Origin: a virus | Taxonomy: Duplodnaviria > Caudoviricetes | IMG/VR virus record: IMGVR_UViG_3300037484_000729 | Location: 1 to 25,275 of that record | Direction: 5' to 3' (one strand) | DNA length: 25,275 nucleotides | In this document: one piece after another, positions 283 to 17,657 of the stretch | Layout of the letters: each line of letters opens with the position of its first letter | Position numbering within the stretch: the first letter of the stretch is position 1 | The notes under the pieces: model-generated | Told to the model about the DNA's origin: nothing | Databases searched by the model: none | What the model saw: only the letters and a program-made list of their open reading frames with translations | Translations under genes and position numbers: made by a program

Positions 283-1326
283 TTATGCAGTCAGCAGTAC
301 AGCCGTGTACTCGATCCAGATTGCGGACAGCACTACGGTATCCGTGGTGTGCGCTCCCGGTGTCAGTTCAACTGTCAAAGTTTGTGCCCCTGCAGGAATA
401 TCGGCAGCAGCAATAGTAATGGTGTTCTCCGCGTATGCTGCACCCAGGGCGGAGGAAACGTCCTCAACCTTGGTGTCTCCCTCGTTAAAGTAGGAATCCG
501 CAGCAATGGTTGGAGTATCAGTGGCGCCACCGGATTTTGCCCGGAAATGGATAACCAGATCAGAGGCAACGTCAAGATCCGGAGGAAGCGGTGTCTGGAA
601 AAGTACCGCATCGGAATTACTCGCAACCCATGTTACCAGCAGGCCGGAATCAGTGTCACCGTTTGCCATGTCCAGAACCGGAGTGGTACTGACTCCGAGA
701 CGCGCCACGACATTAGTGGCATCTGTTTCAATCAGATCTCCCAGCATAATCTGGATAAACTTCTGGGCGCTGAGCAGATGCTGATAGATTTCCTGCAATG
801 CCGCTTCAACTTCTGTCTGGGCGGTGAACGTTCCAGCATCTGCCATGCTGATGGCGCTGGCAGCATGGGCTCCAGTGGTGTCGGCAATGTGTGTCGCCAC
901 ATCCGCCTGAACGATTGCAGGTTCGATGTCAATCATGGCATGTGTGGTGTCGAGATACTCGGCAATCACACCGCAAAAAATATTGTTGGTGACGTTGGCC
1001 ACCAGATCAACTGTCTGGTCATCAACCAGAAAAACCTCGTCACCGACATTGGCCTGGGTGATGGCTGTATCCATAACAACCTTCACCAATCCGCGTCTGC
1101 GCAGGACAATGTCAATATCGCCGTTGGAGCCGGAGCTGTTGTCTGCCCTGGCTGTTGCAACTCCCTGGAAAATCAGCCCCGCTGTATCAGAGCCTTCGAG
1201 CGCGTATCCATTGGCATTGACACAGGCCAGCGCTCCACCGAAAATTTTCTCTGACGCCGCAACTGGAAAGGCAAGCTCCTTACCTTCTTTATGATGGGCA
1301 TCACGATCTTCTGTTTGTGCAGTCAT
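283..1326 (-). CDS. Capsid cement/decoration protein (DUF2190-like N-terminus) with long C-terminal extension
   Basis: Lies between protease and capsid. N-terminal 'FPVAASEKIFGGAL..VNANGYA...VGDEVFLVDDQTV' pattern, then 'HAASAIS...VEAALQEI' neck and a beta-rich domain. Confidence 0.7.
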   Translation of the reverse strand: MTAQTEDRDAHHKEGKELAFPVAASEKIFGGALACVNANGYALEGSDTAGLIFQGVATARADNSSGSNGDIDIVLRRRGLVKVVMDTAITQANVGDEVFLVDDQTVDLVANVTNNIFCGVIAEYLDTTHAMIDIEPAIVQADVATHIADTTGAHAASAISMADAGTFTAQTEVEAALQEIYQHLLSAQKFIQIMLGDLIETDATNVVARLGVSTTPVLDMANGDTDSGLLVTWVASNSDAVLFQTPLPPDLDVASDLVIHFRAKSGGATDTPTIAADSYFNEGDTKVEDVSSALGAAYAENTITIAAADIPAGAQTLTVELTPGAHTTDTVVLSAIWIEYTAVLLTA

Positions 1327-1375: not shown

Positions 1376-2395
1376 TCAAGCAAAACCGAATTTTTTAATA
1401 TCGTCTGACTCAATGCCCATCATTCCGGCAATTTTGAGAGTGGTAGCATTCAGCTCCTTGTCATCGGTGGTGGTGTCCTTTGTCTCAAGTTTTGATACCG
1501 GAACCACAACAGGCGCCTTGGCCACAAACAGGTTGAAGCCTGCCAGATCAGCAGCGGCATAGGTCGCTGCCCAGTCTTTCTGGTCGGGAGTTATCTTCCC
1601 GGCTGTCATGGCTGCTTTTACAGCATCGAAAGCGTCCCGTTTGGCTATTTTTGCCTGCAGGGCGTCAAAGTCTTCCTTGGAAACCATCATTTTGGCGCCC
1701 TGTTTCAGGGCATGAATGGAGGCTATAACCTCACTTTCACTGTTTGACTCCAGTCCAAGAGCCGTAACCACAGCGCCTGAAATCACCTCCTTTGCTGCTT
1801 TTTTGTCTGTGTTTTTTCCAGCCAGCAACTCATCAATTGCCAGCAGTACCTGGTCTTCGGTCGCGTCCGACTGGAGCGACAACTTCGCAATCAATTTCTT
1901 CAGCATTTCGTTCTCCTGCTCAAGTTGTGCCCCCAGTTTAGCCAGGAGCGGTTGTATATTGTTGGTCTTAGGGTTATTGGTCAGCGATACGCTGTGTATC
2001 GCGAAAATTCTTTTGTCTTCGGTACTCACATAAAAGACCGGAGAAATGTAGCGGTATTCCTTTTTTGCCAAATACTGTCTGGCCGTTTCCGTCCAGTCGA
2101 CCTTTGCCTCGATCCCCCGTAATGTCCAGCGCCAGTCTTTGGCCCAGCCAGAAGCAGGGGCCTGTACGTCTTTGGTGGCCTGATGCTCGTAGTCAAAGAC
2201 CACATCCACCCCGCGCCGGTTGATTCTGGCTTGCATCCGCAGGTATCCTTCCTCATCAACCAGGAACTTTCCGGCCTCGCCTTCCCCTTCGAGCTGCTGC
2301 CAGCCTGCTGCAAAGATGAGATACCATTCCGGTAACTGTTCTGGTGCGAGATTGTCTGTCCCCAGGGACGCTGTCAGTGTGTATGCTTTTTTCAT
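1376..2395 (-). CDS. Mu-like prophage I protein (head maturation protease/scaffold)
   Basis: 'VFDYEHQ...APASGW', 'YRYISPVF', 'SLTNNP', 'GKITPDQKDWA' motifs. Start MKKAY coupled to the gpG stop. Confidence 0.9.
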   Translation of the reverse strand: MKKAYTLTASLGTDNLAPEQLPEWYLIFAAGWQQLEGEGEAGKFLVDEEGYLRMQARINRRGVDVVFDYEHQATKDVQAPASGWAKDWRWTLRGIEAKVDWTETARQYLAKKEYRYISPVFYVSTEDKRIFAIHSVSLTNNPKTNNIQPLLAKLGAQLEQENEMLKKLIAKLSLQSDATEDQVLLAIDELLAGKNTDKKAAKEVISGAVVTALGLESNSESEVIASIHALKQGAKMMVSKEDFDALQAKIAKRDAFDAVKAAMTAGKITPDQKDWAATYAAADLAGFNLFVAKAPVVVPVSKLETKDTTTDDKELNATTLKIAGMMGIESDDIKKFGFA

Positions 2396-2931
2396 GTTTT
2401 TCCCTCTATGATCCATCGTGCAGATAATGCCTCTATTTCCAGAATGTCCTCATCCTGTACCAGCAGAAATGGTCTTGCCGGGATATCGCCCCAGGGCAGT
2501 TTCATTTTCCTGCCGTGCCCGGAGACGTTGTATTTTTTGCCAGCCCTGCTGGTGCGCTGATGTGCCTTTACCTGGGCCAACACCTCGCCAAACGATCCTT
2601 TTGCGGCCCCGAAGTGGTGCACAGCCGCATAAACGACATTGGTACCAACCAGCACCTCATCACCCTGAACTTTGCTGGTGATGGAATTCATCAGTCTGTT
2701 GGTGTTCCGCAGGGTGCCTGCCGTCTTTCCCGGGACGGCCTGATCAGTACCGCGCCTGCTTGGCTTCCATTTCTCCGGCCTGCCTGCCTGGGCAAAATTG
2801 GTCCTGACCGATTCACTGACAATGGTTCCTGCCAGCTTCAGCAGTTTTGTCTTGCTGGTGATCCGGCCAGCGATCTCGTCCATCTTCTTTTTCAGCTCGG
2901 ACGCATCTATTTCAAACAACAGCTCGCTCAT
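2392..2931 (-). CDS. Phage virion morphogenesis protein (Mu gpG-like)
   Basis: 'NF...GRP..WKP', 'VGTNVVYAAVHHFG', 'IPARPFL' motifs. Start moved to MSELL. Confidence 0.88.
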   Translation of the reverse strand: MSELLFEIDASELKKKMDEIAGRITSKTKLLKLAGTIVSESVRTNFAQAGRPEKWKPSRRGTDQAVPGKTAGTLRNTNRLMNSITSKVQGDEVLVGTNVVYAAVHHFGAAKGSFGEVLAQVKAHQRTSRAGKKYNVSGHGRKMKLPWGDIPARPFLLVQDEDILEIEALSARWIIEGKT

Positions 2932-3048
2932 AGATTCCAACCCCATTAAAACAGCCTTTAAAGTCGCCAGTATCGCATTTGCCGGGTAACGTCCGACACA
3001 TTGGACAGGTTGTCCAGGCTGCATCAGACAGGGCCATTTTTAGCGCTT

Positions 3049-3864
3049 TCATTTGTCTGGCCATTCCTTCACCGTCATGTTGTCTACATCTATCTCCAGT
3101 TTTTCTGCTAATGGTGTGGCCATTTCTGCCAGCGCGGCCTTTGCAACAGGCTCCGGCCAGGAGGCTATCCGCTCGGTGAGCAGTTCGCCCATGCCCTGCC
3201 AGTAGCTCGCCCCGGCGTTGTATTCAAAACCGATGTCCGGCAGCATCTGGACAGCAGGTGTCCGGTTACCGGTGGTCGGATCTATGGGTTCAATCAAGCG
3301 CTGGGTGATATCTTCCTCTTCAACGCTCAGTCCTCTTTTCTGTACCTGACTCCCGGTCAGGCCGATGACCGAACAGCGTCACCTGTAGCCGTTTGGCGGA
3401 AACCATGTCGCCCAGACCGGATGATTGGCGGGCCAGACCCTGTTATCCATCGCCAGATGGGTGGGACGCACCCGCCTGTCATTGATGGCGCTGTACTGCC
3501 AGTACTCCAGCACATCACGGTCCTGCATCAGCTGCTGGTAATGGCCGACGTTATAGGCGGTCTGGATATTGGTGCGGAAGATGTTGTCAATCCTCCATGC
3601 CCGTTTTCCGGTCCAGCCTCTGCGCTCAAAGATGCCTGCGCATTCCTTCTGGAACTGCTCAAAACTTGTGCCCTGGTCGACGGCCTTCTGCAGTGCCAGG
3701 TATACGGTCGACAGCTCATCGCCCTTGGCAATGCCGGAGACTGCAAAGGCCCGGAGCTTGGCCTCGTTCTCCAGCTCCCTAAACTCAGAGGGTGACACCT
3801 GCACCTTGTCGCGCCAGAATATCTGTGCTGCCTCCATAGGCAGCAAGGCAAACTTAAATGCCAT
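3049..3864 (-). CDS. Mu gpF/gp30 head morphogenesis protein with in-frame TGA (3379-3381), probable selenocysteine readthrough
   Basis: 'IFRTNIQTAYNVG', 'YSAINDRRVRPTH', 'FPPNGYR*RCSV'. ORFs 3379-3885 and 3049-3297 are in the same frame, and the only stop between them is one TGA at the conserved Cys. Confidence 0.85.
3340..3378 (-). promoter_or_regulatory. Candidate bacterial SECIS element
   Basis: 3' of UGA: CGCUGUUCGGUCAUCG-GCCUGAC-CGGGA-GUCAGGU-ACAG. 7-bp upper stem, G-rich loop starting 23 nt after UGA, CUGU/ACAG lower stem. Confidence 0.65.
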
Positions 3865-5428
3865 CACGGGCCACCTTGCGGCCAAACATCTCGGCGTTAA
3901 AAGCCGCCATTTCCATTACCGCCTGCAGGCTGGACATATCCATGTCCGGATACAGCGCAATGATTTTTTCCATCGCCTCTTCATACGAGGCAGAGGAGCG
4001 CACCGTTTCCAGAAGTTTCTGCTCATTGGCATCAAGATGGGTTTGTTCAATGGCTTCGTCCCCCAGTTCTTCCAGCGCCTGTTGCTCTTCGGTAAAGCCT
4101 GCCGTGTTCCGGTCCTTGGCAACCAGCAGTTTTGCTGCAAAGGGTAACTGTACAGGAGCTGGCTGTTGCTGGCCTCCACCGCCCACCATCAGTTCTCCCT
4201 TCTTCGGCTCCGGGATATTAAATTCTTTGTTGAGCCAGGAGGCAGGAACCTGATGAATTCTGGTGATCTTCTCCACCCAGCTCGCCTTGGCGTCCAGATC
4301 CTCGTCTTCATCCAGGCGGGCAAAATAGCCGGGAATCCTGGTATCCCAGCCAAAATTGAACCCGACCATGGGACGGATCAGCTGGTTGCGGATGGTGGCT
4401 GCTTCGGCGCGTCCGTCTGCCTTGAGCAGATCCAGCCGGATACCGTCATGAGTTTTAGATGCTGCATAGCTGCCAGACTCTCCCACATCGGCGGTCAAGG
4501 TCTGCCCCAGTATGGCCTTGGATATCTCGCCGTTGCAGAACTCTGCCAGCATCTTCCACAGATCTCCCTTGACAGATCCCTGCGAGGCCTCGACAAATTC
4601 AATCTCCGTGCTCTTGGAGATGATTCCTGCCGCATCAGTGCCCAGTGATGAAATGGCAGCGAGCAACGCTGCCCGGTCCTCACTGCTTGCACCCTGATCA
4701 TATCTGCCCAGACGCAGCGGCATGCCGTAGGTCTCGCAAAAAATTACCCAGTCCTTGATGGCGTAATGCTTGAACAGCACCATCCAGGCTGCAACCCGGT
4801 AAATGCCGGATCTGGTTGCATGGCCGCTTTTGCCGCCGTATTGATGGAGCAACACCTTCCATTCGGGGATTTCGGCGCCCATGGCATGCTCATCAGAAAG
4901 CAGCAGGGGAAAGCGCCGCAATAAGCCATTGTTGTCGGTAAACAGAAAACGCTGCTGTTCAAGAAACTCAAGTTTGCCGGGCATAGCCATCCCCTCGGAA
5001 ACATCCCAATGGATTTCCATAGCGGCAAAGCCTTTGCCCACTGCGTCCTGCAGGGAAACAAGGCAGTCATCCCAGTCGGAATGGTTTTTGAAAAAATCAC
5101 CGATAAACTCGGCAACCTTGATGTCTCTGGCGTCATCACTGGCAGGCTCCACTTCAAAATCCAGATCCAAAATGATATTCTTGCGTTTGTCACGTTCACA
5201 GAGCAAGTGGCCGTCTTTCTCCTCCAGCTGCTCAAACAGCGCTGCCTGCCGGGAGACATTGCCGCCATCCGCTTCCTTGAAAATCGTTGCCAGCCGTTCA
5301 GGAGTAAGGCCGTCTGTGACATAGTCCCGGAAAGAGTCCAGAATAGGGGCAACAGCCAGAGCGCGCTTCTCAGGCGCCTTCTGTTTTTTTATTTCCCTGC
5401 CGAACTGATCGTATAAAATGACAGCCAT
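3854..5428 (-). CDS. Portal protein (Mu gp29/DUF935)
   Basis: 'LEEKDGHL', 'F.E.YGMPLRLGRY', 'CNGEISKAILGQTLT...GSYAASKTH' motifs. Directly follows the terminase. Confidence 0.93.
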   Translation of the reverse strand: MAVILYDQFGREIKKQKAPEKRALAVAPILDSFRDYVTDGLTPERLATIFKEADGGNVSRQAALFEQLEEKDGHLLCERDKRKNIILDLDFEVEPASDDARDIKVAEFIGDFFKNHSDWDDCLVSLQDAVGKGFAAMEIHWDVSEGMAMPGKLEFLEQQRFLFTDNNGLLRRFPLLLSDEHAMGAEIPEWKVLLHQYGGKSGHATRSGIYRVAAWMVLFKHYAIKDWVIFCETYGMPLRLGRYDQGASSEDRAALLAAISSLGTDAAGIISKSTEIEFVEASQGSVKGDLWKMLAEFCNGEISKAILGQTLTADVGESGSYAASKTHDGIRLDLLKADGRAEAATIRNQLIRPMVGFNFGWDTRIPGYFARLDEDEDLDAKASWVEKITRIHQVPASWLNKEFNIPEPKKGELMVGGGGQQQPAPVQLPFAAKLLVAKDRNTAGFTEEQQALEELGDEAIEQTHLDANEQKLLETVRSSASYEEAMEKIIALYPDMDMSSLQAVMEMAAFNAEMFGRKVARDGI

Positions 5429-6895
5429 TTAAAATGCTCCCCGCTTGGTTGTGCGTTTGCTGACCGATTTGTATTCTGTTTCCCCGCCGCCTTCCTGTCT
5501 GGTGGCATACCATGCCATGGCCCCGGCAATACCGGAATCACCGTGGCGCTGTTTCTTGTCTCTGGCGTTGGTTTTTTTTTCCGGCAGTTTGGGCACCCCC
5601 TTGATTACCTTGAATGCCCGGTGGTCTTCGATGATGTCCGCATCCTTTGGCAGCAGGATGGAACGGTCCTCAAAGGCCGCTTTATACTTGGGCATGTTTT
5701 CCCGGTACCACGACTCGGAGAGCATCACCTGACTGATTCTGCTGGCGCCGTACCGCTGCATGGTAACCTCCGCCAGATACTGGCCGTTGCCCCTGGCATC
5801 AAGCGCGCCGTGCCGGAACCGTGGCAGGCGGTCGATGAGGTAAAACAGGATTTGCTCCTGCTGCCGGAACGGAATGTTGCGCAGCTCCAGGGTAAAAGGT
5901 GCCTTGAAGACTGTGTTCTGCTGCTCCTGCAGGGGGATAATGATGCTCAGATCTCCTGTTCTGGCAAAGTCCTCCCCGAAATACGATTCCCTTTTCTTGT
6001 CCAGGGTTGCCAGCAACGGCTGCAGATAATCCTCGCACCATGCCCCGACCTCTGCCTCCCGCACTGCATCCGGAAGATGGACAAATTCAGACGTCTGCTC
6101 GTAGCGGATCACCGAAATGGTGTCGCTCATACATGCTTCCACCATCGCCCTGGTCAGATAGGTGCCGGAACCCTGGGCGGGAATACAGAAAAGCTCTTCA
6201 TCCGCTGCATCACCGTAGGAGGCAATCAGCCCTGTTTTCCATTCTTCCTCTGCCTCCTGGCTCCACTTCCTGCCCAGCCTGAGACAAATCCGCTTGTAAA
6301 GTCCCTGTTCAACGGCATCATCAAAGGTGATCCTGTGCAGGCTGTATGGTTTACGGCCTGCCCGGATGTCCTTTACCAGCTCATTAAACGGATTGGCCTC
6401 TCCGTCATGGGTTGAGATAACCCGTACCTGACCGCCCCACATCAGCAGGGCCATAGCCGCTTTGAGCAGCTCCCCCAATGCGTCATGGAACGCGGCCTCA
6501 TCAATCACCACTCTGCCCTGCTTGCCTCGCAGATTTGATGGTCTTGATGAGAGAGCGACAATCTTGTGGCCGGATTTAAAGCGAATTCTGAAGGTAAGAA
6601 TGTCCTTGTCCTGGTCAACAAAAACCTCTTCTTCCACCGCCTCCGCCGCCAGATCGTATTGCTTGGCCCAGAACGCGCAGTCTTCGATAAACTCTTCGGC
6701 CATGTCCTTGTTGTAGCCGATATACCAGACATCATCTCCTGAAGCCATGGCTGCAAACAGTGCATCGTCTGCAGCCTCGGACCAGGACAGACCAATCCGG
6801 CGTGATTTTACAATCACTTTGACTTCCGCCTCATCCGCAGCCCAGTCCTGCTGGTAGGGCAGAAAGACATATGGCACATCCGCTGTGGTTGTCAT
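5429..6895 (-). CDS. terL: Terminase large subunit (Mu gp28-like)
   Basis: 'FLPYQ', 'KSRRIGLSW', 'LRGKQG.VVIDEAAFH', 'GEDFARTGD', 'HGDSGIA'. Confidence 0.95.
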   Translation of the reverse strand: MTTTADVPYVFLPYQQDWAADEAEVKVIVKSRRIGLSWSEAADDALFAAMASGDDVWYIGYNKDMAEEFIEDCAFWAKQYDLAAEAVEEEVFVDQDKDILTFRIRFKSGHKIVALSSRPSNLRGKQGRVVIDEAAFHDALGELLKAAMALLMWGGQVRVISTHDGEANPFNELVKDIRAGRKPYSLHRITFDDAVEQGLYKRICLRLGRKWSQEAEEEWKTGLIASYGDAADEELFCIPAQGSGTYLTRAMVEACMSDTISVIRYEQTSEFVHLPDAVREAEVGAWCEDYLQPLLATLDKKRESYFGEDFARTGDLSIIIPLQEQQNTVFKAPFTLELRNIPFRQQEQILFYLIDRLPRFRHGALDARGNGQYLAEVTMQRYGASRISQVMLSESWYRENMPKYKAAFEDRSILLPKDADIIEDHRAFKVIKGVPKLPEKKTNARDKKQRHGDSGIAGAMAWYATRQEGGGETEYKSVSKRTTKRGAF

Positions 6896-8556: not shown

Positions 8557-8842
8557 AATGATTGCCGTCGTTGAAACGCCCGCCCCAGATACCGCCGACC
8601 GATTCCCACCACTCGCCAAGCTGCTGGTGGTGGCTGGTATCGTCCAGATAGTTGCCGTCCAGGAACAGGTTCAGATCAATTGCCAGTCTGATTTTGTGTT
8701 TGCTGTTCTCCGAGCCATACGGACAGCGTGGATCCCGATAGGCATCACCCAGGGTGACAGCAAAATTCAGCTCATGTGCCTTGTTGAGCAGGCGCCCAAC
8801 CATAACGGCAAATTGCTGCTGTCGTTTGAGTAGGAGGCTCAT
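8540..8842 (-). CDS. Endolysin, M15-family metallopeptidase
   Basis: 'GDAYR', 'SKH...LAIDL', 'WGGRF.DGNHY'. Confidence 0.88.
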   Translation of the reverse strand: MSLLLKRQQQFAVMVGRLLNKAHELNFAVTLGDAYRDPRCPYGSENSKHKIRLAIDLNLFLDGNYLDDTSHHQQLGEWWESVGGIWGGRFNDGNHYEWPY

Positions 8843-9504
8843 TTGATTTCCTTCAGTTTCTCATGGCGCTTGGCAGGAGATGTGACCAAGAACTTTCTGT
8901 CTCCTGCCTGCAGGATGGAAGGATCCGGATAGTCTTTTCCCGGCTTGCTGAATCGATATGTTGGGCGGTTACCGTTTGACCGCGGGTTGTCAGAATTCAT
9001 CTTCCCGCGTTCCGTGCCGATACTGACAGGCACATTATCGAAAGTATTGGCCAGCAAAACAACCAGCTTGCCATTGCTCTCGGAAACAGGTTTCCACAGT
9101 ATCGCTACCTCTTTTCCGGTGTACTGGTAAGTGGGTAGCGATACTTCCCCGTTGTTTTCTATTGTTGGTGTTTCCGGCACTGCAGGTTGTGGCTCAATAA
9201 TTGGGGGTTCTTCTGTTGGCGCAGAAGAACCCCCGCCCCCTGGTACTGGAGGTGCCGTGGAAGCCTGTGGTGTGGAGGTTGGCATTGGGCTTTGAAAAAG
9301 TGTTTTGGTAAAGGAATCGTACATGGTGACAAGCTGGGACCAGATCCCGACATCGGTCAGTACCCTTCCTTCATAGGTGGTGGCGCTGACTCCTGCAGGA
9401 TTGGTGGCTGTTTCGTATCTGACAGCACAGCGGGGCAGGGTAAATATAATCATCAGAAATGAGAGCAGCAGGGCATGTCTTTTCACTTTTTCCCTCCGGA
9501 GCAT
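8839..9504 (-). CDS. Secreted/lipoprotein with Pro-rich linker, first late gene
   Basis: Basic N-terminus, hydrophobic stretch ending in Cys, then P/T/S-rich linker and a globular C-terminus. Confidence 0.65.
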   Translation of the reverse strand: MLRREKVKRHALLLSFLMIIFTLPRCAVRYETATNPAGVSATTYEGRVLTDVGIWSQLVTMYDSFTKTLFQSPMPTSTPQASTAPPVPGGGGSSAPTEEPPIIEPQPAVPETPTIENNGEVSLPTYQYTGKEVAILWKPVSESNGKLVVLLANTFDNVPVSIGTERGKMNSDNPRSNGNRPTYRFSKPGKDYPDPSILQAGDRKFLVTSPAKRHEKLKEIK

Positions 9505-9556
9505 GGATTGATTGCGTTACATAGTATGCTTTGGATATACAGAAAGAGGAAAAAAA

Positions 9557-9584
9557 TGGTTATGTGATCGGTGTCACATAACCA
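9557..9584. promoter_or_regulatory. Dyad activator site of the late (lysis) promoter
   Basis: Perfect TGGTTATGTGA-N6-TCACATAACCA. -10-like TACTAT on minus strand at 9521-9526, no good -35. Confidence 0.6.
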
Positions 9585-9618
9585 GCAGGGGTGTCGATCA
9601 GGGTATGGTGGGGGGTTC

Positions 9619-9650
9619 TTCAGTGACCCGCTGGGAAGCGGATCACTGAA
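9619..9650 (-). other. 14-bp RNA hairpin downstream of csf3
   Basis: Minus strand TTCAGTGATCCGCT-TCCC-AGCGGGTCACTGAA (one G-U pair), no 3' U-tract. Confidence 0.55.
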
Positions 9651-9706
9651 AAGTGGAGAGAGAAAAAAGAGTTAAAAATTATTACAGGGCGGTTAAGGCT
9701 CACTGG

Positions 9707-10342
9707 TTAGGCCAATAAATCCCCGACCTCTCGGCATCGTATCCGGTCGATCCGGTTCCAGTATGGCGGCATCGAACGCACCAGACGAGTCCCGTTATGA
9801 TCAGGCAGCCAGCGCATAGCCTGGCCATCACGGACAAGGCTCCAGTCTTCCGGCGTCTCCTCGACTTCGATAGAGACGATCCGTCCGTGTCCGTACGCAC
9901 GTTTCTTGCCGAGGTAGCGCAATTGCTTCTTGAGCACCTTCTTGCATTCCCCACGATTGCCGCTGGCAAAAGCCACCATCCTGGGACAAAGCAAAAGCGG
10001 CATGGGCGCGTTCCAGTCCCGGTAAGTGCCATTGGTCAATACCGGTGCGCCGGTACTTAGGTCAGCGCGGCCCTGGCGGAAACGCTTACGCCAGAACTGG
10101 AGGTCTTCCCCTTGCTGCCCATCCGGGAACAGGGCCGAGGCATGCCATACCTTAACGCCATCGATCCTGGAGTTGATCAACGGCAGGGCCACAAACTCAG
10201 GCACATCGTCGCGGCCAAGTTCCTTATTTTTGCATTGCATGGGGGCCAGGCACCAGGCCAGTAAGGCGTCAAGGTGCAGTGGCTCGGATGGATCATAACA
10301 GACCCCTGAGCCGTCAAGATGGAAAATCACTTTAAAGTTCAT
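9707..10342 (-). CDS. csf3: Type IV CRISPR-associated Csf3 (Cas5-like RAMP)
   Basis: 'LHLDALLAW', 'LPL...WHAS', G-loop 'LGKKRAYGHGRI', C-terminal 'MRWLP...PPYW'. Confidence 0.9.
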   Translation of the reverse strand: MNFKVIFHLDGSGVCYDPSEPLHLDALLAWCLAPMQCKNKELGRDDVPEFVALPLINSRIDGVKVWHASALFPDGQQGEDLQFWRKRFRQGRADLSTGAPVLTNGTYRDWNAPMPLLLCPRMVAFASGNRGECKKVLKKQLRYLGKKRAYGHGRIVSIEVEETPEDWSLVRDGQAMRWLPDHNGTRLVRSMPPYWNRIDRIRCREVGDLLA

Positions 10343-11016
10343 GCCAATCCCCTTTGACGCCAGAGATCACGCATCTCGGCGGCATCTGTTGAGTTCATTA
10401 GGTCAAGCGCCCTCTCGGTGTAGGATCCTGGCCTGCAGCCGGTTGAGGTGCGCACCTCCAAGCCAAAGCGCCGGTATGGTGACAGTAGTGGCAACTCATA
10501 CCTAGCAATATAGGCCGCCAGGTCGGCAACTGTCCACCAGGCCATGGGGTAACAGCGGCTACGGCCATCGGCCAGGAGCTTGCAACGTCCGTGGTCTAAG
10601 GTCTTGCATAAGGCCATCCTGCCCTTGCTCTCCTCGGCAGCGATGCCGACAATCTGGCCTCCATGGTGGTGGCTATTGTCATATTCGGCAATCGCCTCTT
10701 TAAGCGACAGTGCGCGGGGCCACTCCAGATAGTTCAAGGGCCAGCGGCCCATGAAGGCCTCTTTAACGGCCATAAAATCACCCAACAACTCGGCATCCTC
10801 CCCGGTCCAGTGCACACAGAGGGTGTGCGGCCGATGAATGGCCACCACATGGGCCAAGATGATAGACTGCTTACCCCAGGACAACGAGAGATATGGGCTT
10901 TCAATTCGATCTATAAACCGGCAGACGTTGGTTATCAGCGCGGTTTCCTTGCCCCGATATTGTGGCAGGTTGGCCATGATCCGGCCATCTGCCAATTGGT
11001 CATCCAGCTTGCTCAC
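10339..11016 (-). CDS. cysH: CysH/PAPS-reductase-like protein (type IV-B accessory)
   Basis: PP-loop variant 'SLSWGKQS', 'GIAAEES..R', 'CYPMAWWTVADL.AYI....LP....Y'. Confidence 0.85.
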   Translation of the reverse strand: MSKLDDQLADGRIMANLPQYRGKETALITNVCRFIDRIESPYLSLSWGKQSIILAHVVAIHRPHTLCVHWTGEDAELLGDFMAVKEAFMGRWPLNYLEWPRALSLKEAIAEYDNSHHHGGQIVGIAAEESKGRMALCKTLDHGRCKLLADGRSRCYPMAWWTVADLAAYIARYELPLLSPYRRFGLEVRTSTGCRPGSYTERALDLMNSTDAAEMRDLWRQRGLA

Positions 11017-11671
11017 TCTTTAGCTCCTCTTGGCTCGGTAACAGGTAGCACATAAAGGCGTAGAGCGCCGACTTGTACCGTGGCCGAGCCCACTCATCGA
11101 ACGCCAGCCACTCCTTAATGCCGTTTTTCTTAATCAACCACGGGGGGCAATTAAGGGACTCGATCACCGAGCGGCCAAATCCTTGCCGCAGTACGGCATT
11201 AAGCCGTTGCCATACCTCTTGCATTTGACCGCTGTCCGAGCAATCGACCAAGCGAGATTCGAAGAGCCATACCATTTGCCCTGGGCCATTGACCCTGGCC
11301 CGCATCGCGCCGTGTTTTTTGTAGCTGGTGGTAGCGTAAGCGGTCCACGGATCGGAAGGGGCCGGGCCAAAGACAGCAGCCCGCACCCCTTGCCGGTCAA
11401 GGCGCTGGAAAGTATGGCCATCGCAGATCCAGGAGCTCATACGCTCCCACTTATAGGCCAAGGCGGTGTAGGCCTCGACGCTCACTCGGTCAGACTGAGG
11501 GGCCTTTAGTAAGGCCCCATCGGTAAAAGACTTGCCGAGCAACTCCTTGCGCGGGATGGTGGCGCCCTCGTCGCCCGTCACGGCGCATATGCCCGTGGCT
11601 ATGGCCACTGGCAAAGCAGGGCAATCCTCAAGGCTATAAATCGCTTGCGCTATCAGTTGCACCGGGTGCAT
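11000..11671 (-). CDS. csf1: Type IV CRISPR-associated Csf1 (Cas8-like)
   Basis: 'GICAVTG...GKSFTD..LL.AP.S', 'P..P......TTSYKKH', and its position in the operon. Confidence 0.8.
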   Translation of the reverse strand: MHPVQLIAQAIYSLEDCPALPVAIATGICAVTGDEGATIPRKELLGKSFTDGALLKAPQSDRVSVEAYTALAYKWERMSSWICDGHTFQRLDRQGVRAAVFGPAPSDPWTAYATTSYKKHGAMRARVNGPGQMVWLFESRLVDCSDSGQMQEVWQRLNAVLRQGFGRSVIESLNCPPWLIKKNGIKEWLAFDEWARPRYKSALYAFMCYLLPSQEELKSEQAG

Positions 11672-12887
11672 GGATGGCTCCTATTTCCGTGAGGTAGGCC
11701 TTGATTTCACCTTGATTATTCTCCAGCCAATCTAAATAGGGCTGTTGGTCTGGAGCTCCTTCAATGGCCAGGTCAACCTTTCCCAGGCCCCGGCGGTTTT
11801 CTGCGCCCAGGAATCCACGCTCCTTGAGCAAGGCCAGGCCGCAACCAAGAGAGGAACGCTCCAGGTCATTGGCATGTGTGTCGATGTCAATGCCACCAGT
11901 AAGCACGGCCCCGGCCTTGATGCACTCGGTATTGGCAATCATGCCTGTGTGCTCATCTTCGGCGGTGCGCCCTTCGTAATCCTCGCGGCGGGTCAGGAAG
12001 GTCCACTCCATCAACTCGGCGGCATTAATGGTGCCGGTGCCCCACTCCAGGCAGCGCGGGCGCAAGTCGTTGACGCAAACCCGGCCAGGCAATACTTTGT
12101 TGCCGATGGCCGATCCGAGCAGGGAAAGAGAGGGCAGCATGTCGCGGATACGGCGGATGCCGTCCGTGCGCAGTGATCCGTTTTTGCCAAGCTCCTTGGA
12201 GATGGCATCCATTATCTTGCTTTGCTCCTCAAGTACCCCGCCAGCATATATCACGTGGAAGAACCAAAGCGCCACCGGAGGCTTATCCTTGCGCGGGGTA
12301 AGTCCAAGCGAACGCAAAAGATGGTCAGCCAGAAGGTCTCGGATCTGGCCCCGGATAGCGTTCCCGGCATAAAACGGCAGCTCCATCACTTGGCCGCCTG
12401 GAGTGATCACCTGCCGGCGGCGGAATAGGGTGGCATTTCCGGCCTTGCCATCGGCACCGTGGGCCAATGGTGCCAGCAGTTCGGCGGTAATGGCCACGTC
12501 AAAACTTGGTTTGGTGGCTATGGCCGTATGCTCATCGCCCGAAACTGGCGGCAAGACGATGGAGGCAACGGCCACCTGATAATCATCTTCGTTACGGAGG
12601 GCCGAGATCATGGCGGCAATGCGTGGATGCTTACGCAACCAAGCTAGGATAGCCGGGGCCTGTGCGGAGTTAGCGGACGCCATAAAAGCGGCGGTGCGCT
12701 TTCCACCCACCAACTCAATACTGGAGTCCATGGTCTTGGCCAGCCTCTCGATGGCATCAAGCAAGGTCGGCTCGGATGTTGACTGAACGATGCGGTCGGC
12801 AAAGAAATCGTCAAACGATCTCTTCACCTTGAGTTGCGAGCCCCCCTTAAGGCTCCGCATCATATCAAGGGTAGCGGTAAGTGGCAT
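11634..12887 (-). CDS. csf2: Type IV Csf2 (Cas7-like) with N-terminal helical Cas11-like domain
   Basis: 'PLAHG...GNATLFRR', 'LPFYAGNAIRGQIRD', 'P.LSLLGSAIGN.VLPGR', G-loop 'LGAENRRGLGKV'. About 110 extra helical N-terminal residues. AAGGAG RBS. Confidence 0.9.
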   Translation of the reverse strand: MPLTATLDMMRSLKGGSQLKVKRSFDDFFADRIVQSTSEPTLLDAIERLAKTMDSSIELVGGKRTAAFMASANSAQAPAILAWLRKHPRIAAMISALRNEDDYQVAVASIVLPPVSGDEHTAIATKPSFDVAITAELLAPLAHGADGKAGNATLFRRRQVITPGGQVMELPFYAGNAIRGQIRDLLADHLLRSLGLTPRKDKPPVALWFFHVIYAGGVLEEQSKIMDAISKELGKNGSLRTDGIRRIRDMLPSLSLLGSAIGNKVLPGRVCVNDLRPRCLEWGTGTINAAELMEWTFLTRREDYEGRTAEDEHTGMIANTECIKAGAVLTGGIDIDTHANDLERSSLGCGLALLKERGFLGAENRRGLGKVDLAIEGAPDQQPYLDWLENNQGEIKAYLTEIGAIHAPGATDSASDL

Positions 12888-12916
12888 GGTTTGCTCCTTA
12901 AGTTATGTGCCAAATG

Positions 12917-12993
12917 GCCTAACAAAACGGCTCACGCAGACGGCGGTGAGCCTTCCGATTTTCAATCAAGTTTTGAGGCCGCCGCTGGTGGCC
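12917..12993 (+). other. Degenerate attC-like site (R' lost)
   Basis: GCCTAAC-AAAAC-GGCTCACG-CAGACGGCGG...CCGCCGCT-GGTGGCC; no GTTRRRY follows. Confidence 0.6.
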
Positions 12994-13284
12994 TCAAGTC
13001 TGGTACTTCTTATCTATCGCTTTACCTGTCTCGACGGCTTTATCAAATTCCCTGATTGCCTCAAACCATTTAATCCTACCCGTGATGGTTGAGTTGTCGA
13101 TCTCTTGCATGGCCTTGACCGTCCTATCCATCACCTTTTGTACCTGACTTGTTTTCCGGTCCCACTCAAGGTACTTGAGCCTTCGCAGGAGTTCATCTTT
13201 TTTGTACCGCAGGAAGTACCCTTGCTCTTGGATAAAGGCAATCAGTGTGGCCTTCTCAAAATCATCAAAAACTGTTTTTTTCAT
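12994..13284 (-). CDS. Hypothetical protein
   Basis: 96-aa helical ORF coupled to the upstream ORF, AGGAG RBS. Confidence 0.7.
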   Translation of the reverse strand: MKKTVFDDFEKATLIAFIQEQGYFLRYKKDELLRRLKYLEWDRKTSQVQKVMDRTVKAMQEIDNSTITGRIKWFEAIREFDKAVETGKAIDKKYQT

Positions 13285-13493
13285 TTTCCCGGCACTCCTG
13301 TCATAGCTTTTTCAATTCTTGTCTGCTGGAATTTATCGATCAGTACCTTATTGGATTCCCAGCGGCCATCCGATATGCGGTCCAGAAAATCAATCACATC
13401 ATCAAAACCGGCATAACCAGGCGCTACACCTGGAACCATGGAGCGAGCACTTTCGGCACTTGCCGCCGCTTGTGTTTCCGTCGTTCCAAACAT
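13281..13493 (-). CDS. Hypothetical protein whose RBS and start lie inside an attC site
   Basis: GGAG-aaaaaact-ATG (MFGTTE...) in the attC loop. Stop overlaps the next start. Confidence 0.55.
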   Translation of the reverse strand: MFGTTETQAAASAESARSMVPGVAPGYAGFDDVIDFLDRISDGRWESNKVLIDKFQQTRIEKAMTGVPGK

Positions 13494-13533
13494 AGTTTTT
13501 TCTCCCATGGTTCAGGTGCGCTGATCGTTATGA
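13411..13533 (+). other. attC-like integron recombination site
   Basis: R'' GCATAAC, CAGGC, L'' GCTACACC, stem TGGAACCATGG/CCATGGTTCA, L' GGTGCGC, TGATC, R' GTTATGA. Confidence 0.8.
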
Positions 13534-13668
13534 GGCGTAGCCTTATCGCGTAGCCAAGCCGTCCCGGCATCAATCGCGGCCTGCTCGCTGTCGTGGTAGC
13601 CGCAAGGCAGTTTCCCCACGCCAATCGCGTGCGCTGCGTAGCCAGGCGCCAGCGTTTCCGGGTCGATA
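13532..13668 (+). repeat. 137-bp direct repeat, copy 1 (3' remnant of the gene at 15383-15616)
   Basis: Identical to 15406-15542 except C13549 vs T15423. Confidence 0.97.
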
Positions 13669-13699
13669 AAAAAAAATAAAAAAATATGCAATTTCACCC

Positions 13700-13729
13700 T
13701 TGACTTTTAGGCCCAATGGGCCTAAAAGT
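13700..13729 (+). promoter_or_regulatory. Sigma70-like promoter with overlapping palindromic operator
   Basis: A-tract, then TTGACT-17 bp-TAAAAG. Perfect ACTTTTAGGCCCA-A-TGGGCCTAAAAGT (13703-13729). Confidence 0.75.
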
Positions 13730-13781
13730 AAGTAACAAAGGGAAGGGAATCACCCCGGCCCAAACAACCATGGAGGAAACC

Positions 13782-14078
13782 ATGAAGATCAGCAAAACCC
13801 AACAACGTGTCAATTGGATCAACGACAATCTCCCCGCAATCAAAAAATCCCGCACAAACGATCACAGCCATTGCAAGGGAAAATGCCACAATGGCGCAAC
13901 ATGCCACAATCAGTCGGCCGGCGGGTATGGCTGGTGGGCAAATGCTCTTTCCCAGGCTGGCATAAACTCTGAGCGTCGCAACTACTGGAGCGGTAGCAAT
14001 CCCACTCCATCGACAAGCATCAACAAAGGTATTGCTGAGTACATCAGCAAAAATGCCCCTGCCGAAATCAGGTGGTAA
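13782..14078 (+). CDS. Small Cys/His-cluster hypothetical protein
   Basis: GGAGG RBS. MKISKTQQ...HSHCKGKCHNGATCH, 98 aa. Confidence 0.75.
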   Translation: MKISKTQQRVNWINDNLPAIKKSRTNDHSHCKGKCHNGATCHNQSAGGYGWWANALSQAGINSERRNYWSGSNPTPSTSINKGIAEYISKNAPAEIRW

Positions 14079-14088
14079 ACTGCAAATA

Positions 14089-14113
14089 GCCCCGCTCCGG
14101 CGGGGCATCTTTT
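14089..14113 (+). terminator. Intergenic hairpin/attenuator
   Basis: GCCCCGC-TCCG-GCGGGGC-ATCTTTT. Confidence 0.55.
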
Positions 14114-14129
14114 CACGGAGGAATCTATT

Positions 14130-14540
14130 ATGCAAAAAGAATGTTTTATCTGCGGAGATAACGCTTTTTCGGCTATCGGCGGAGTCCTGCTTTGCCAGGC
14201 ACACCGCGCCGCTGTTATGGCCGAAATTGATACTCTCAGGGCTGCTGGTAAATCGGTTGATGCAACGCGCATAGCTTATGAGATGCGCGAGCCGGAAACA
14301 CCGGCAAAATACGCTCCATCCGCAAAAGCCGTGCATGAGTTTTTGCAGAAGAATAACATTACCGGGAGCGACGCCGCAAGAATGATGTACCTTAGTGGCT
14401 CCAGGCAGGTGAGAAAATACACAGGCGGGCAAAAGCCCAGGCAGATGGATGGCGCAAGATGGTTTTGTTTGCACGCTCATACAATACTCAGCGCAGAAGA
14501 TATTGCAAAAATCGAAACAGCCATGATTTCTAACCTTTAA
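14130..14540 (+). CDS. Zn-finger plus KorC-like HTH repressor
   Basis: N-terminal CxxC...CxxH. 'PSAKAVHEFL....ITGSDAARMMYLSGSRQVRKYTGG.....AxW' resembles the IncP KorC HTH. Confidence 0.7.
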   Translation: MQKECFICGDNAFSAIGGVLLCQAHRAAVMAEIDTLRAAGKSVDATRIAYEMREPETPAKYAPSAKAVHEFLQKNNITGSDAARMMYLSGSRQVRKYTGGQKPRQMDGARWFCLHAHTILSAEDIAKIETAMISNL

Positions 14541-14548
14541 AAGTAGCT

Positions 14549-14612
14549 TTACAACCAGTCGTTTCACCGGATGCCGCAAACAGCGCGGCTCCGGTGAGCT
14601 CTATCGTTAACT
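14549..14612 (+). other. attC-like integron recombination site (64 bp)
   Basis: TTACAAC-CAGTC-GTTTCACC-GGATGCCGCAAACAGCGCGGCTCC-GGTGAGC-TCTATC-GTTAACT; canonical 7-5-8...7-6-7 spacing. Confidence 0.85.
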
Positions 14613-15344
14613 AGCCAACAGATCGACAAACCACACCTTGTCCACCTTGCGGATGTCGATAATACCTATGCTCTCGATGACAAAATCTCTGACGTGTTTG
14701 CGCTTTATCCACCATTGGTCCCCGCCTTGGCTCTCTACCCTCTTTGTTCCCCGGCGGCCTGCTACCAGCCACCCCCGGTCAATCCAACGGGTAACGACCT
14801 TGATGTCAACCCCGAACTCGCTGGCCAGCTGGGTAGCGGTATAATGGTCAATATCGATGGTGTTACACCGCGTCCGCTTACGTTTGACAGCAATGGCGGT
14901 TGCAGTTCTGGCATAACCATTGGCCCGAAAGACGCGGGCTATTATCTCGGGCGTCTTGTGAGCATGTTTTTCGAGCAACTCAATTTCAGCGGCAGACCAT
15001 TGAGGTTCTTTATTTTCGGCCAGGGCAGGTTGGGCCACACCGAGGTGAGAGCCACGTTTTTTTACCCACCAATAGGGACGGCTCAAACGTTTGGCCAACT
15101 TACGGAGTTCCCCTTTTTCTGGTCGGTTGCGGTAGCACTCGGTGATAAGTCGGTCAATTTCCTCTGTTGCCGGCCATGATCCGCGAGGGGCTTTGCGCTC
15201 CACTAGCCCAAGGTTGGCAGCCTGTTGGTATATGGCTCCTTTGGTGCGCCGGGGCAACAATGGCAGGCAGGCTTTCACTCCGCCTATCGGGTAGTGGTTT
15301 TTAACCACCGCCACCTCTTTGTTTGTCCAGTGGTATCGTTCCAT
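14607..15344 (-). CDS. Multi-HTH DNA-binding protein (three Myb/SANT-like repeats plus excisionase/MerR-like wHTH)
   Basis: Repeats 'WT..E...RT..AI' and 'WS..E...RT..AI'. C-terminal 'YTATQLASEFGVD.KVVTRWIDRGWL'. Confidence 0.7.
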   Translation of the reverse strand: MERYHWTNKEVAVVKNHYPIGGVKACLPLLPRRTKGAIYQQAANLGLVERKAPRGSWPATEEIDRLITECYRNRPEKGELRKLAKRLSRPYWWVKKRGSHLGVAQPALAENKEPQWSAAEIELLEKHAHKTPEIIARVFRANGYARTATAIAVKRKRTRCNTIDIDHYTATQLASEFGVDIKVVTRWIDRGWLVAGRRGTKRVESQGGDQWWIKRKHVRDFVIESIGIIDIRKVDKVWFVDLLAS

Positions 15345-15366
15345 CTTTCTCCCCTTAAACGATATT

Positions 15367-15405
15367 GTCTAACCATGCCAATTCAGCGGACGTGCCGCCC
15401 CTCAG
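15367..15405 (+). other. Left half of a truncated attC-like site
   Basis: GTCTAAC-CATGCC-AATTCAGC-GGACG..., joined directly to repeat copy 2. Confidence 0.5.
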
Positions 15406-15616
15406 GAGGCGTAGCCTTATCGTGTAGCCAAGCCGTCCCGGCATCAATCGCGGCCTGCTCGCTGTCGTGGTAGCCGCAAGGCAGTTTCCCCACGCCAATC
15501 GCGTGCGCTGCGTAGCCAGGCGCCAGCGTTTCCGGGTCGATATCAAGCTTCGCCTCAACCCCTTTCGCCAGCAGGTATCCGGCCCGTTGCTGCACATTCA
15601 TTGCACTGTATTCCAT
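15383..15616 (-). CDS. Hypothetical protein (77 aa)
   Basis: GGAG RBS, MEYSAMNV.... Its 3' part is the 137-bp repeat. Confidence 0.65.
   Translation of the reverse strand: MEYSAMNVQQRAGYLLAKGVEAKLDIDPETLAPGYAAHAIGVGKLPCGYHDSEQAAIDAGTAWLHDKATPPEGRHVR
15406..15542 (+). repeat. 137-bp direct repeat, copy 2
   Basis: One mismatch to 13532-13668. Confidence 0.97.
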
Positions 15617-15660
15617 ATCGTCTTCTCCAAAAATGCCGCAAGGCACTTGTTTTGATGGCG

Positions 15661-15999
15661 TTAAAACAAACTCATCTGCCTGTCTTCCATCGTTCCAGGC
15701 TGTTTCAAAATCCTGATAATATGACGGGCGCACAACCCAAATTCTACAGATATCTTTTTTTGCGGAACACCAGCATCCGCTTCCTTCCGGATCGCATCGT
15801 CTCGGATCTGACGTAACAATCCATCAATTTTATGCATATAAACAGGCCCACCACCAAACAACTGGGCAAAGATCAAAACAAGCTCTACTCCCCGGCCAGG
15901 TAATTGTTCTTCAATCACCTCGGCCATCCAGCGCAGCTCTCCCGGCAGTTCCTGTATCTCAGGATAATACTCTGGCGGTATGGTGATATACTTAGACAA
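15661..15999 (-). CDS. mor: Mor/C-family transcription activator
   Basis: 'FGGGPVYM.K.....R..RD..I', C-terminal HTH 'ISVEFGLCARHIIRIL'. Follows gemA. Confidence 0.85.
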   Translation of the reverse strand: MSKYITIPPEYYPEIQELPGELRWMAEVIEEQLPGRGVELVLIFAQLFGGGPVYMHKIDGLLRQIRDDAIRKEADAGVPQKKISVEFGLCARHIIRILKQPGTMEDRQMSLF

Positions 16000-16414
16000 G
16001 CTCCACTCCTTTCCTTTTGCCCCAATCCTTGAGCGCCTCTATCACAACAGCTTTCTGGGCAGCACTGCACCACTGGAGCCGGTCAACCTTGGTCATCTTC
16101 TGGACAAACACCAACAACGCCTGCTCCGAGCTGTTGTGCACCACCCCTGCCTTGTGCAGCGTTATCCACAAGGCCCGAATCTTGCGGGACATGGGATCGG
16201 ACGCCATTTCAATTCCCGGCAGACTCCGCTGTTTCTTCGGCTTCCAGCCAAGGTTCTGGAAATGTCTGAGCAGACGGCCAGCCTGCATGGGCGTCAATTG
16301 AGCGGCTGATTCTTTCCGAAACTGCTCATGCAAAATGGCACGGTATACTTCATCTGTCAGGTTCAGTTCCTTTTTTGCAATATGGATTTTTGCCAGATCA
16401 TTTTTACTTGGCAT
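15992..16414 (-). CDS. gemA: GemA/gp16 (DUF1018) regulatory protein
   Basis: 'LAKIHIAKKELNL.DEVYR.IL', 'KIRALW..L', 'VIEALK.W'. Confidence 0.9.
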   Translation of the reverse strand: MPSKNDLAKIHIAKKELNLTDEVYRAILHEQFRKESAAQLTPMQAGRLLRHFQNLGWKPKKQRSLPGIEMASDPMSRKIRALWITLHKAGVVHNSSEQALLVFVQKMTKVDRLQWCSAAQKAVVIEALKDWGKRKGVELV

Positions 16415-16943
16415 GGTTTATTCCTCCAGATACCTTCTTCAACGGATCGCCATGTTTCTCCAGATACTGTTTCATGATCGGCGATATTTCCTCAGCGCCT
16501 GCCTGCTGATCACGCCGATGGCCTGTCACTTCATTGCTCCTGGCAACCTGCTCATTTCTGGCATCCGCCGCATCCGCCAGGCTCCAGGCAATCTGCAGCA
16601 GATAATTGTGATTGGGCAACGGCAGCTGCAGCGATCCTCTCCGTTCCACCATCTGTTCGATTGCGGTGGCCCAGATCCGCACCGGGCATGGACGGGACAC
16701 CTTTCCCTGTACCTGCACATGACCAGCGGCCACCAGCGCGGCCAGATCCCTGGTGACGCGCAACGCCTTTTTCCAGCTCAGCGCCGACTTGCCGGGCCGA
16801 AACAAACTCAAATATCCGAGCAATACCGGTTGCAAGCCGCTCGGCAACTCACAGGCCGCTTTCAGCATTTCCCTGGCTGCGGCGTCATTTTCCCAGGCAT
16901 CGGCCCCGGCAACAGCTCCACATGATGGACATATCAGTTTCAT
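16404..16943 (-). CDS. Conserved Mu-like early hypothetical protein (Zn ribbon)
   Basis: 'MKLICPSCGA', 'YLSLFRP', 'LPNHNYL'. Confidence 0.75.
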   Translation of the reverse strand: MKLICPSCGAVAGADAWENDAAAREMLKAACELPSGLQPVLLGYLSLFRPGKSALSWKKALRVTRDLAALVAAGHVQVQGKVSRPCPVRIWATAIEQMVERRGSLQLPLPNHNYLLQIAWSLADAADARNEQVARSNEVTGHRRDQQAGAEEISPIMKQYLEKHGDPLKKVSGGINHAK

Positions 16944-17039
16944 ATTTTTCAATTTAATTTTTCGTTTATCATCGGCTGGCATCATCAGGCCGGAGCAACC
17001 ACACTCCGACGATCCCGCCCATTTGGGCAGGATTTCGCC

Positions 17040-17657
17040 TTATACTCCTGCAATATCAAGACTTATCTGTTTCCACTGGTCAGTGCCGCTGATCCTCTCA
17101 TACACCCGCAGATAGATCCGGCTGCCGGCAACGGTCAGGCTGTCGTTGATTGCCTCCATTGCCTGGAGCCAACGTGCGTCTTTGATGTTAAATTTACGCA
17201 GGGACAGGATCTGCTGCGTGTTGACGTTGCCCTTCTTGTCAACCCGAAAGGCATCATTGATCAGCAGTCTTATTTCCGGTCTGGCCTCTCCACCCCATTC
17301 CCGCAAACACTCATCGATCAGGCCCTTTGCTACCTGCAGCCGCTCATCAAAATCAAAGGAGTCCGAGACTGCACGCAGTATTTTGTACTTGCCGTCATAG
17401 CTCAGCAGACTGATGTTCCCCTTTTCACCGCCGTATTCTCTGCCGTATTCCATCGCTGAGAGATCGGAGAAAGCCGCTATTTCCGTGAAAGCGTGCTCCT
17501 TGAATTTCTTCAATCCGGTGTTGACGCTCAGCGCCATTCGCACCAAATCCATCACCAGCTCATGTCTGGTGCGGTCTATCTCCTTGACCATTTCGTCAGG
17601 CACCAGCCGCCCCATAGTGTCCTGCATATATCCTTGCGGCATTGTTATTTCAGGCAT
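17040..17657 (-). CDS. DUF3164 family protein
   Basis: 'GYMQD..GRLVP', 'GGEKGNISL.SYDG', 'FDERLQVAK.LIDECL..W'. Confidence 0.88.
   Translation of the reverse strand: MPEITMPQGYMQDTMGRLVPDEMVKEIDRTRHELVMDLVRMALSVNTGLKKFKEHAFTEIAAFSDLSAMEYGREYGGEKGNISLLSYDGKYKILRAVSDSFDFDERLQVAKGLIDECLREWGGEARPEIRLLINDAFRVDKKGNVNTQQILSLRKFNIKDARWLQAMEAINDSLTVAGSRIYLRVYERISGTDQWKQISLDIAGV

Follow-up and report, generated by a model that had tools for sequence, protein, structure and literature searches.

Among viruses of eukaryotes, poxviruses have selenoproteins, such as the glutathione peroxidase of molluscum contagiosum virus, a captured host enzyme with a 3'-UTR SECIS. Bacterial selenoproteins, such as those encoded by fdhA and selD, have UGA at a conserved Cys position and a SECIS hairpin downstream within the coding sequence. 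The bacterial consensus (bSECIS), as set out in a 2026 catalogue, is a stem of 4-16 bp with a loop of 3-9 nt at a spacing of 16-37 nt, with G in the first two loop positions and an MFE of -7.5 or lower (PMC13188914).

The MuF1 proteins include Mu gpF and SPP1 gp7. They contain the PF04233 domain, and their gene lies directly after the portal gene. The MuF domain is found in about one-third of tailed phages, and its biochemical function is not known (PMC5576092). SPP1 gp7 binds the portal, is present at one or two copies per capsid, and supports infection (PMC5576092, PMC6316719). It is dispensable for assembly, and about 25% of virions are infectious upon its loss (PMC6316719, PMC5576092).

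The genes described here are Mu-type MuF genes with TGA at a Cys of the conserved motif (TGA-MuF genes). Like bacterial selenoproteins, they have UGA at a conserved Cys, followed after 16-37 nt by a hairpin whose loop carries G in its first two positions. Exchange of Cys and Sec is scattered in both, the short UxC and CxU motifs have parallels in some of the catalogued families, and the hosts of related prophages have selA, selB, and selC. Unlike bacterial selenoproteins, TGA-MuF proteins are phage-encoded, belong to a virion morphogenesis module, and have no oxidoreductase fold. The position after the portal, PF04233, and the short form of the window protein are those of MuF1 proteins; what differs is that UGA encodes the motif Cys position. 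The MuF polymorphic toxins are approached by four TGA relatives with a PBECR2 domain in the part made only by read-through, whereas the window MuF has no toxin domain. As for the poxvirus enzyme, a virus gene would depend on host Sec machinery, but TGA-MuF would be a native phage structural protein with a bacterial SECIS in its coding sequence.

The window is the whole stretch of DNA analyzed, a 25-kb contig (25,275 nt) from a transposable phage resembling Mu. Its genes lie on the minus strand, in the order transposase, AAA protein, GemA, peptidase, terminase, portal, MuF, gpG, and protease. The features of the locus are as follows.

5429..6895, minus strand: terminase large subunit gene, intact, start overlapping the TGA stop of the preceding gene (PF03237)
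3854..5428, minus strand: portal gene, intact, stop overlapping the MuF start (PF06074, E 3e-93)
3049..3864, minus strand: MuF/gpF minor head protein gene (PF04233, TIGR01641, phrog_220)
3457..3459, minus strand: invariant His136 (RxxH), putative third ligand of a metal or redox site
3379..3381, minus strand: in-frame TGA, codon 162, at the first Cys of PPNGxxCRC (predicted Sec162; Cys in homologues)
3373..3375, minus strand: second motif Cys, Cys164 (TGT); the same column is TGA in L028, L030, and L429
3049..3378, minus strand: 109-codon part of MuF made only by read-through, under purifying selection
3344..3362, minus strand: predicted bacterial SECIS hairpin, 7-bp stem and 5-nt loop CGGGA (3355-3351), from fold and model
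2392..3024, minus strand: gpG-like virion morphogenesis gene, intact, TGA stop, downstream of MuF (PF05069)
1376..2416, minus strand: Mu gpI-like protease/scaffold gene, intact, TGA stop (PF10123)

The MuF gene starts at ATG 3864. Its product is 161 aa if TGA162 is a stop, and the gene has 271 codons if it is read through. The TGA lies in the context PPNGYR*RCSV and is followed by 109 sense codons, including PDIGFEYNAG, before the frame ends with TGA at 3049-3051. The read-through product has a PF04233 match at residues 54-167, spanning the TGA (E 7e-21; 75.5 bits against a curated cut-off of 29.6), and matches phrog_220, a minor head protein family (E 7e-70). Both motif Cys residues, together with D129, R133, and H136, are invariant in 106 full-length homologues. 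A preliminary description of this DNA had reported a UGA at the conserved MuF Cys, a frame open for about 110 further codons, intact flanking head genes, and a SECIS-like hairpin with a G-rich loop 23 nt past the UGA. Each of these is borne out by the coordinates above, the frames of terL, portal, gpG, and protease all being open. PF04233 is the only domain of the 271-aa MuF, and no C-terminal toxin domain was found in it. The window gave no match to NCBIfam selenoprotein models or to Rfam SECIS families. No tRNA gene was found in the 25-kb window; thus, the phage has no tRNA-Sec of its own in these 25 kb.

The window has several other features. A 347-aa gene follows the protease at 283-1326 (minus strand); its first 127 residues match the virion structural family phrog_1731, and about 220 unmatched residues follow. 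A type IV CRISPR-like cassette is located inside the phage at 9707-12887 (minus strand). It comprises a csf2-like gene (TIGR03115, weak), a 223-aa gene that occupies the csf1 position and has no match, a PAPS-reductase/CysH-like gene (phrog_2302), and a csf3-like gene (TIGR03116, E 3e-17, below cut-off). No CRISPR array was seen among the repeats in 8800-17200. A 137-nt direct repeat (13532-13668 and 15406-15542, 99% identical) flanks about 1.7 kb holding a D5-like regulator gene. A type II hammerhead ribozyme (RF02276, 53 bits) lies between two early genes at 16970-17040 (minus strand).

Phages with recoded genetic codes exist, and an alternative code would read UGA as Trp or Gly. In the window, 5 of 18 annotated genes stop at TGA, and 106 TGG codons are used. 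The neighbors of 24 of 27 TGA loci, compared over 12,804 aligned residues, contain one stop and none opposite Trp, against 113 Trp-Trp pairs, and 16 of 28 TGA-MuF genes themselves end in TGA. With TGA serving as a stop in the window and in neighboring genes, and never found opposite Trp, an alternative code was excluded and its probability is practically nil.

The TGA is found in independent sequences. The MuF of L020 has 99% amino acid identity to the window MuF with 16 synonymous differences, and possesses the same TGA and hairpin. In a contig of run X4, which comes from a different study, there are 19 differences over 171 nt, and those listed leave 3379-3381 and 3344-3362 untouched. A quick tree of 162 MuF proteins places the window in an all-TGA clade of eight (SH-aLRT 96). 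The part of MuF downstream of the TGA is under purifying selection. The window and L020 differ here by 12 synonymous and 2 non-synonymous changes, all 11 pairs tested have a much lower pN than pS in this part, and frames past the TGA stay open for 52-323 codons in 28 of 28 genes tested.

These data bear on whether codon 162 is a true stop, arising from a nonsense mutation or a sequencing error, or left by stable truncation of a gene that the phage can do without. TGY becomes TGA by one base change, and SPP1 gp7 is dispensable for assembly (PMC6316719). Against this stand the selection after the UGA and the retention of TGA across a clade of eight with near-saturated synonymous sites. The first in-frame start after the UGA is 28 codons on, beyond the invariant Arg-Cys. 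TGG, which is equally reachable, is absent: in four viral scans that gave 16 distinct TGA genes, the 21 TGG pattern matches included no MuF gene. This absence tests the decay model only, because selection removes Trp from working genes. A control with TAA or TAG two codons upstream of the TGA column gave no matches. A double TGA is present in one gene. In databases, truncations cluster at one residue, with 17 of 87 short homologues, counted from protein records rather than codons, ending immediately before Cys162. One is WP_205235001.1 of Desulfopila inferna, whose cluster partner is a 258-aa Cys form (also at the protein level). A true stop is therefore most improbable.

The preliminary description had asked whether TGA recurs at this column among homologues, and it does. 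At least 30 distinct Mu-type MuF genes have TGA at a motif Cys, window included. Among those listed, 27 are UxC, 2 are CxU, and 1 is UxU, and at least 28 distinct genes, with the window and the UxU gene included, have TGA in the first Cys column. Identity to the window MuF is 30-99% among 18 aligned TGA genes. A viral scan gave 21 matches, of which 13 were MuF, all with TGA and 12 of them distinct. A wider viral scan added one new gene (14 of 47 matches were MuF), and a viral scan for TGA at the second Cys gave 2 MuF among 13 matches. Both matches of a PLNG-pattern viral scan were MuF, representing one distinct gene. The last viral scan gave 3 MuF among 19 matches, the new one being L429. In L429, positions 934-942 contain TGA at both motif Cys residues (UxU), with one GGA-loop hairpin 18 nt after the second UGA.

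Cellular genomes and metagenomes also contain such genes. Among 120 matches listed in a GTDB pattern scan (35 of 64 parts), 3 were MuF and 117 were not; the carriers are Desulfovibrio cuneatus (the same as L016), Ca. Bilophila faecipullorum, and a Pseudomonadales chromosome. A phylum sample contributed one further gene, G049. Metagenomes gave 9 new TGA-MuF genes of 28 matches, with 7 duplicates and 12 that were not MuF or were unclear. A scan for the HPNCRC type gave 2 MuF-like TGA genes of 9 matches, L399 and L400, which both score just below the Pfam cut-off and were left out of the TGA-MuF counts. These genes are SPP1 gp7-like and have TGA at the first Cys (L399 916-918, plus strand; L400 907-909, minus strand); the hairpin is clear in L399 and weak in L400.

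Sec is rare in the MuF family, even in Desulfobacterota. TGA is found in about 16 of roughly 6,400 viral PPNG-type genes and in 1 of 36 non-seed MuF matches of a Desulfobacterota sample. No TGA was present among the MuF matches of two class samples (18 in 95 genomes and 6 in 96 genomes). This rarity fits near-neutral exchange as well as benefit. The tree requires 17 changes between Cys and TGA, at least 9 of them forced by strong branches, with gain and loss indistinguishable. Cys and Sec appear to have been exchanged many times in the MuF family, mostly in phages of Sec-using anaerobes.

The window hairpin has a folding energy of -10.5 kcal/mol and fits the bSECIS consensus on loop, stem, spacing, and MFE. 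Scoring used an implementation of the consensus in Figure 2 and section 5 of the catalogue, made for this analysis, and not bSECISearch (PMC13188914). Compared with dinucleotide shuffles, the window hairpin has a z of -0.3 to -1.8, and compared with synonymous-codon shuffles, p=0.017. By itself, it is modestly unusual and is weak evidence; its significance derives from the family comparison.

In that comparison, the SECIS model at an MFE of -7.5 or lower is matched by 15 of 19 TGA genes versus 39 of 137 Cys genes (p=3e-5, a value that overstates independence since the genes are interrelated). A perfect stem at -4 kcal/mol or lower, a threshold set after the -7.5 result was known, is present in 18 of 28 TGA genes where 6.8 are expected from synonymous shuffles, and in 22 of 137 Cys genes where 24.1 are expected. 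Among strong hairpins only, G[GU] begins the loop in 18 of 21 TGA genes versus 1 of 24 Cys genes. In 7 of 28 TGA genes versus 2 of 137 Cys genes, every stem pair forms in the exact register of the window hairpin, and L424, found after this count, shows the same register. Compensatory changes, which the preliminary description had proposed to look for, are present among TGA homologues. Four of seven stem pairs have two-sided changes in 12 genes picked for register, a number inflated by selection and relatedness, and in L374 a C-G pair is swapped to U-A through two synonymous changes. The hairpin structure is conserved beyond protein constraint.

The hairpin is not uniform across the family. Ten of 28 TGA genes fail the hairpin test, five of them in the window's own clade (L002, L380, L375, L010, and L011), with L010 and L011 having a 15-nt spacing. 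L002 and L380 have a very stable extended hairpin just after the UGA with the loop G at position 3, outside the consensus. This extended hairpin may be a variant SECIS. In other TGA lineages, the spacing is 15-25 nt, as expected from separate origins. The host selD and fdh SECIS hairpins look like the phage hairpins: the D. cuneatus selD loop is GGC at 20 nt, and that of the formate dehydrogenase in the G049 genome is GGUCU at 18 nt. The positive-control pattern recovered the Sec site in only 2 of 6 host loci.

The third of TGA genes that fail the SECIS test would agree with leaky or programmed read-through independent of SelB. Here, Trp, Cys, or another near-cognate residue would be inserted, aided by the hairpin, and MuF would be kept at one or two copies. 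Few copies of MuF are needed (PMC5576092), and genes of mobile elements often have an in-frame stop followed by sequence with low dN/dS (PMC7918605). However, the stop is always TGA and always at the Cys column, and TGG is never found there, so Trp looks untolerated. The hairpin loops bear the SelB-type G[GU] signature, the UxU gene L429 would require two leaky events, and the hosts possess Sec machinery. Such read-through is very unlikely.

The sel genes were read in hosts of related TGA prophages, from which those of the window's own host are predicted. All four genomes carrying a TGA-MuF prophage among the matches listed have selA and tRNA-Sec. Of the prophage hosts tested, 3 of 3 have selB and 2 of 3 have selD, which is missing from the fragmented Ca. 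Bilophila faecipullorum MAG. The three named hosts each have selA, one selB over the cut-off, and one tRNA-Sec(UCA), and the G049 genome has selA, tRNA-Sec, and a TGA-bearing fdh. The background frequency of selA is 137 of 150 other sampled genomes in the D. cuneatus phylum and 12 of 150 other Pseudomonadales genomes. Since three of the four hosts are from a phylum where selA is near-universal, the Pseudomonadales prophage has the only discriminating host. The nearest named relatives of the window are proteins of Desulfobulbaceae, Desulfobulbus, Desulfocapsa, and Desulfopila (Desulfobulbales, which belong to the same selA-rich phylum as D. cuneatus), so its host is likely a Sec-using member of the Desulfobulbales.

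The same SECIS and SelB route could also deliver mostly Cys, either with selC* tRNA-Cys(UCA) or by Cys misloading at low selenium. Members of the Syntrophobacterales and Desulfobacterales have a selC* tRNA-Cys(UCA), along with a second selB, and this tRNA suppresses a Sec UGA (PMC5389517). The window phage probably has a deltaproteobacterial host, and the MuF family normally has Cys at this position. Against this, a single selB over the cut-off and a single tRNA-Sec were found in each of the three tested hosts, and one of these is a gammaproteobacterium. The selC* route itself still requires the Sec system and backs it up. Decoding mainly as Cys is considered quite unlikely.

It is close to certain that the UGA in MuF is real, conserved, and recoded. 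Judged from sequence comparison, decoding as selenocysteine by host SelB is highly probable and would make MuF a phage structural selenoprotein. In the proposed mechanism, the hairpin 23 nt downstream would recruit host SelB with Sec-tRNA, and Sec would be inserted at codon 162. The product would be a 271-residue selenoprotein with a His136...Sec162-Arg-Cys164 site, in which Sec would replace Cys in a metal-binding or redox site with His136 and Cys164. Under Sec shortage, termination would yield the 161-residue form, which has neither motif residue.

Cys-to-Sec changes fall mostly on redox-active cysteines (PMC1794560); this would point to a reactive or metal-binding His...CxC site in MuF. In L399 and L400, matched by eye rather than by profile alignment, Cys is found where the Mu type has His136, which suggests a metal site. 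The AlphaFold2 model of MuF is confident (pLDDT 91, pTM 0.85). Structure comparison gave no PDB sequence match and no Foldseek match at E<=0.001 (best VIA Z 4.1).

By analogy with SPP1 gp7, the window MuF would bind the portal and be present in virions (PMC6316719, PMC5576092). It would enter the head on the portal at one or two copies and aid DNA delivery. The preliminary description had tied selenium to head assembly, which the one studied MuF does not support, as SPP1 particles assemble without gp7 but need it to infect efficiently (PMC6316719). By the same analogy, MuF probably aids infection and not head assembly, and any link to selenium is more likely through virion infectivity or cargo delivery than through assembly. 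Since gp7 is present in few copies and is dispensable for assembly, a low Sec efficiency would suffice, and an effect of selenium would fall on infectivity. Of the 8 long TGA genes tested, 4 (L221, L246, L063, and L335) encode a PBECR2 nuclease domain after the UGA, and toxin cargo would thus be gated by read-through in those lineages, not in the window gene, which has no PBECR2.

The decoding mechanism is known, and the protein class is new and unexpected. None of the 119 prokaryotic selenoprotein families in Table 1 of the 2026 catalogue is a MuF or other phage family (PMC13188914). In a term search, the main texts of BSepDB (PMC13326102), deep-Sep (PMC12013277), and the Haft and Gwadz preprint contained no phage selenoprotein. 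A search of mostly open-access literature found no report of a MuF or phage-particle selenoprotein; a listing elsewhere is possible. In databases, TGA-MuF genes are annotated as truncated, and their C-terminal nuclease domains are hidden. Cultured hosts for experiments are D. cuneatus DSM 11391 and, by its shortened annotation, Desulfopila inferna.

If the decoding as Sec is true, a phage structural protein joins a selenoproteome made mostly of redox enzymes, and phages evolve SECIS elements of their own, exploiting host recoding. The advantage of Sec may be oxidation tolerance, dosage, or a selenium switch, or Sec may be a tolerated swap. A tentative possibility, less probable than not, is that a virion pilot protein repeatedly became a selenoprotein in temperate phages of selenium-using anaerobes, as a host-nutrient switch on infectivity. 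In that case, selenium supply and SelB would decide whether full-length MuF, in some lineages with a fused nuclease toxin, is made and packaged, and selenium would be built into the phage particle.
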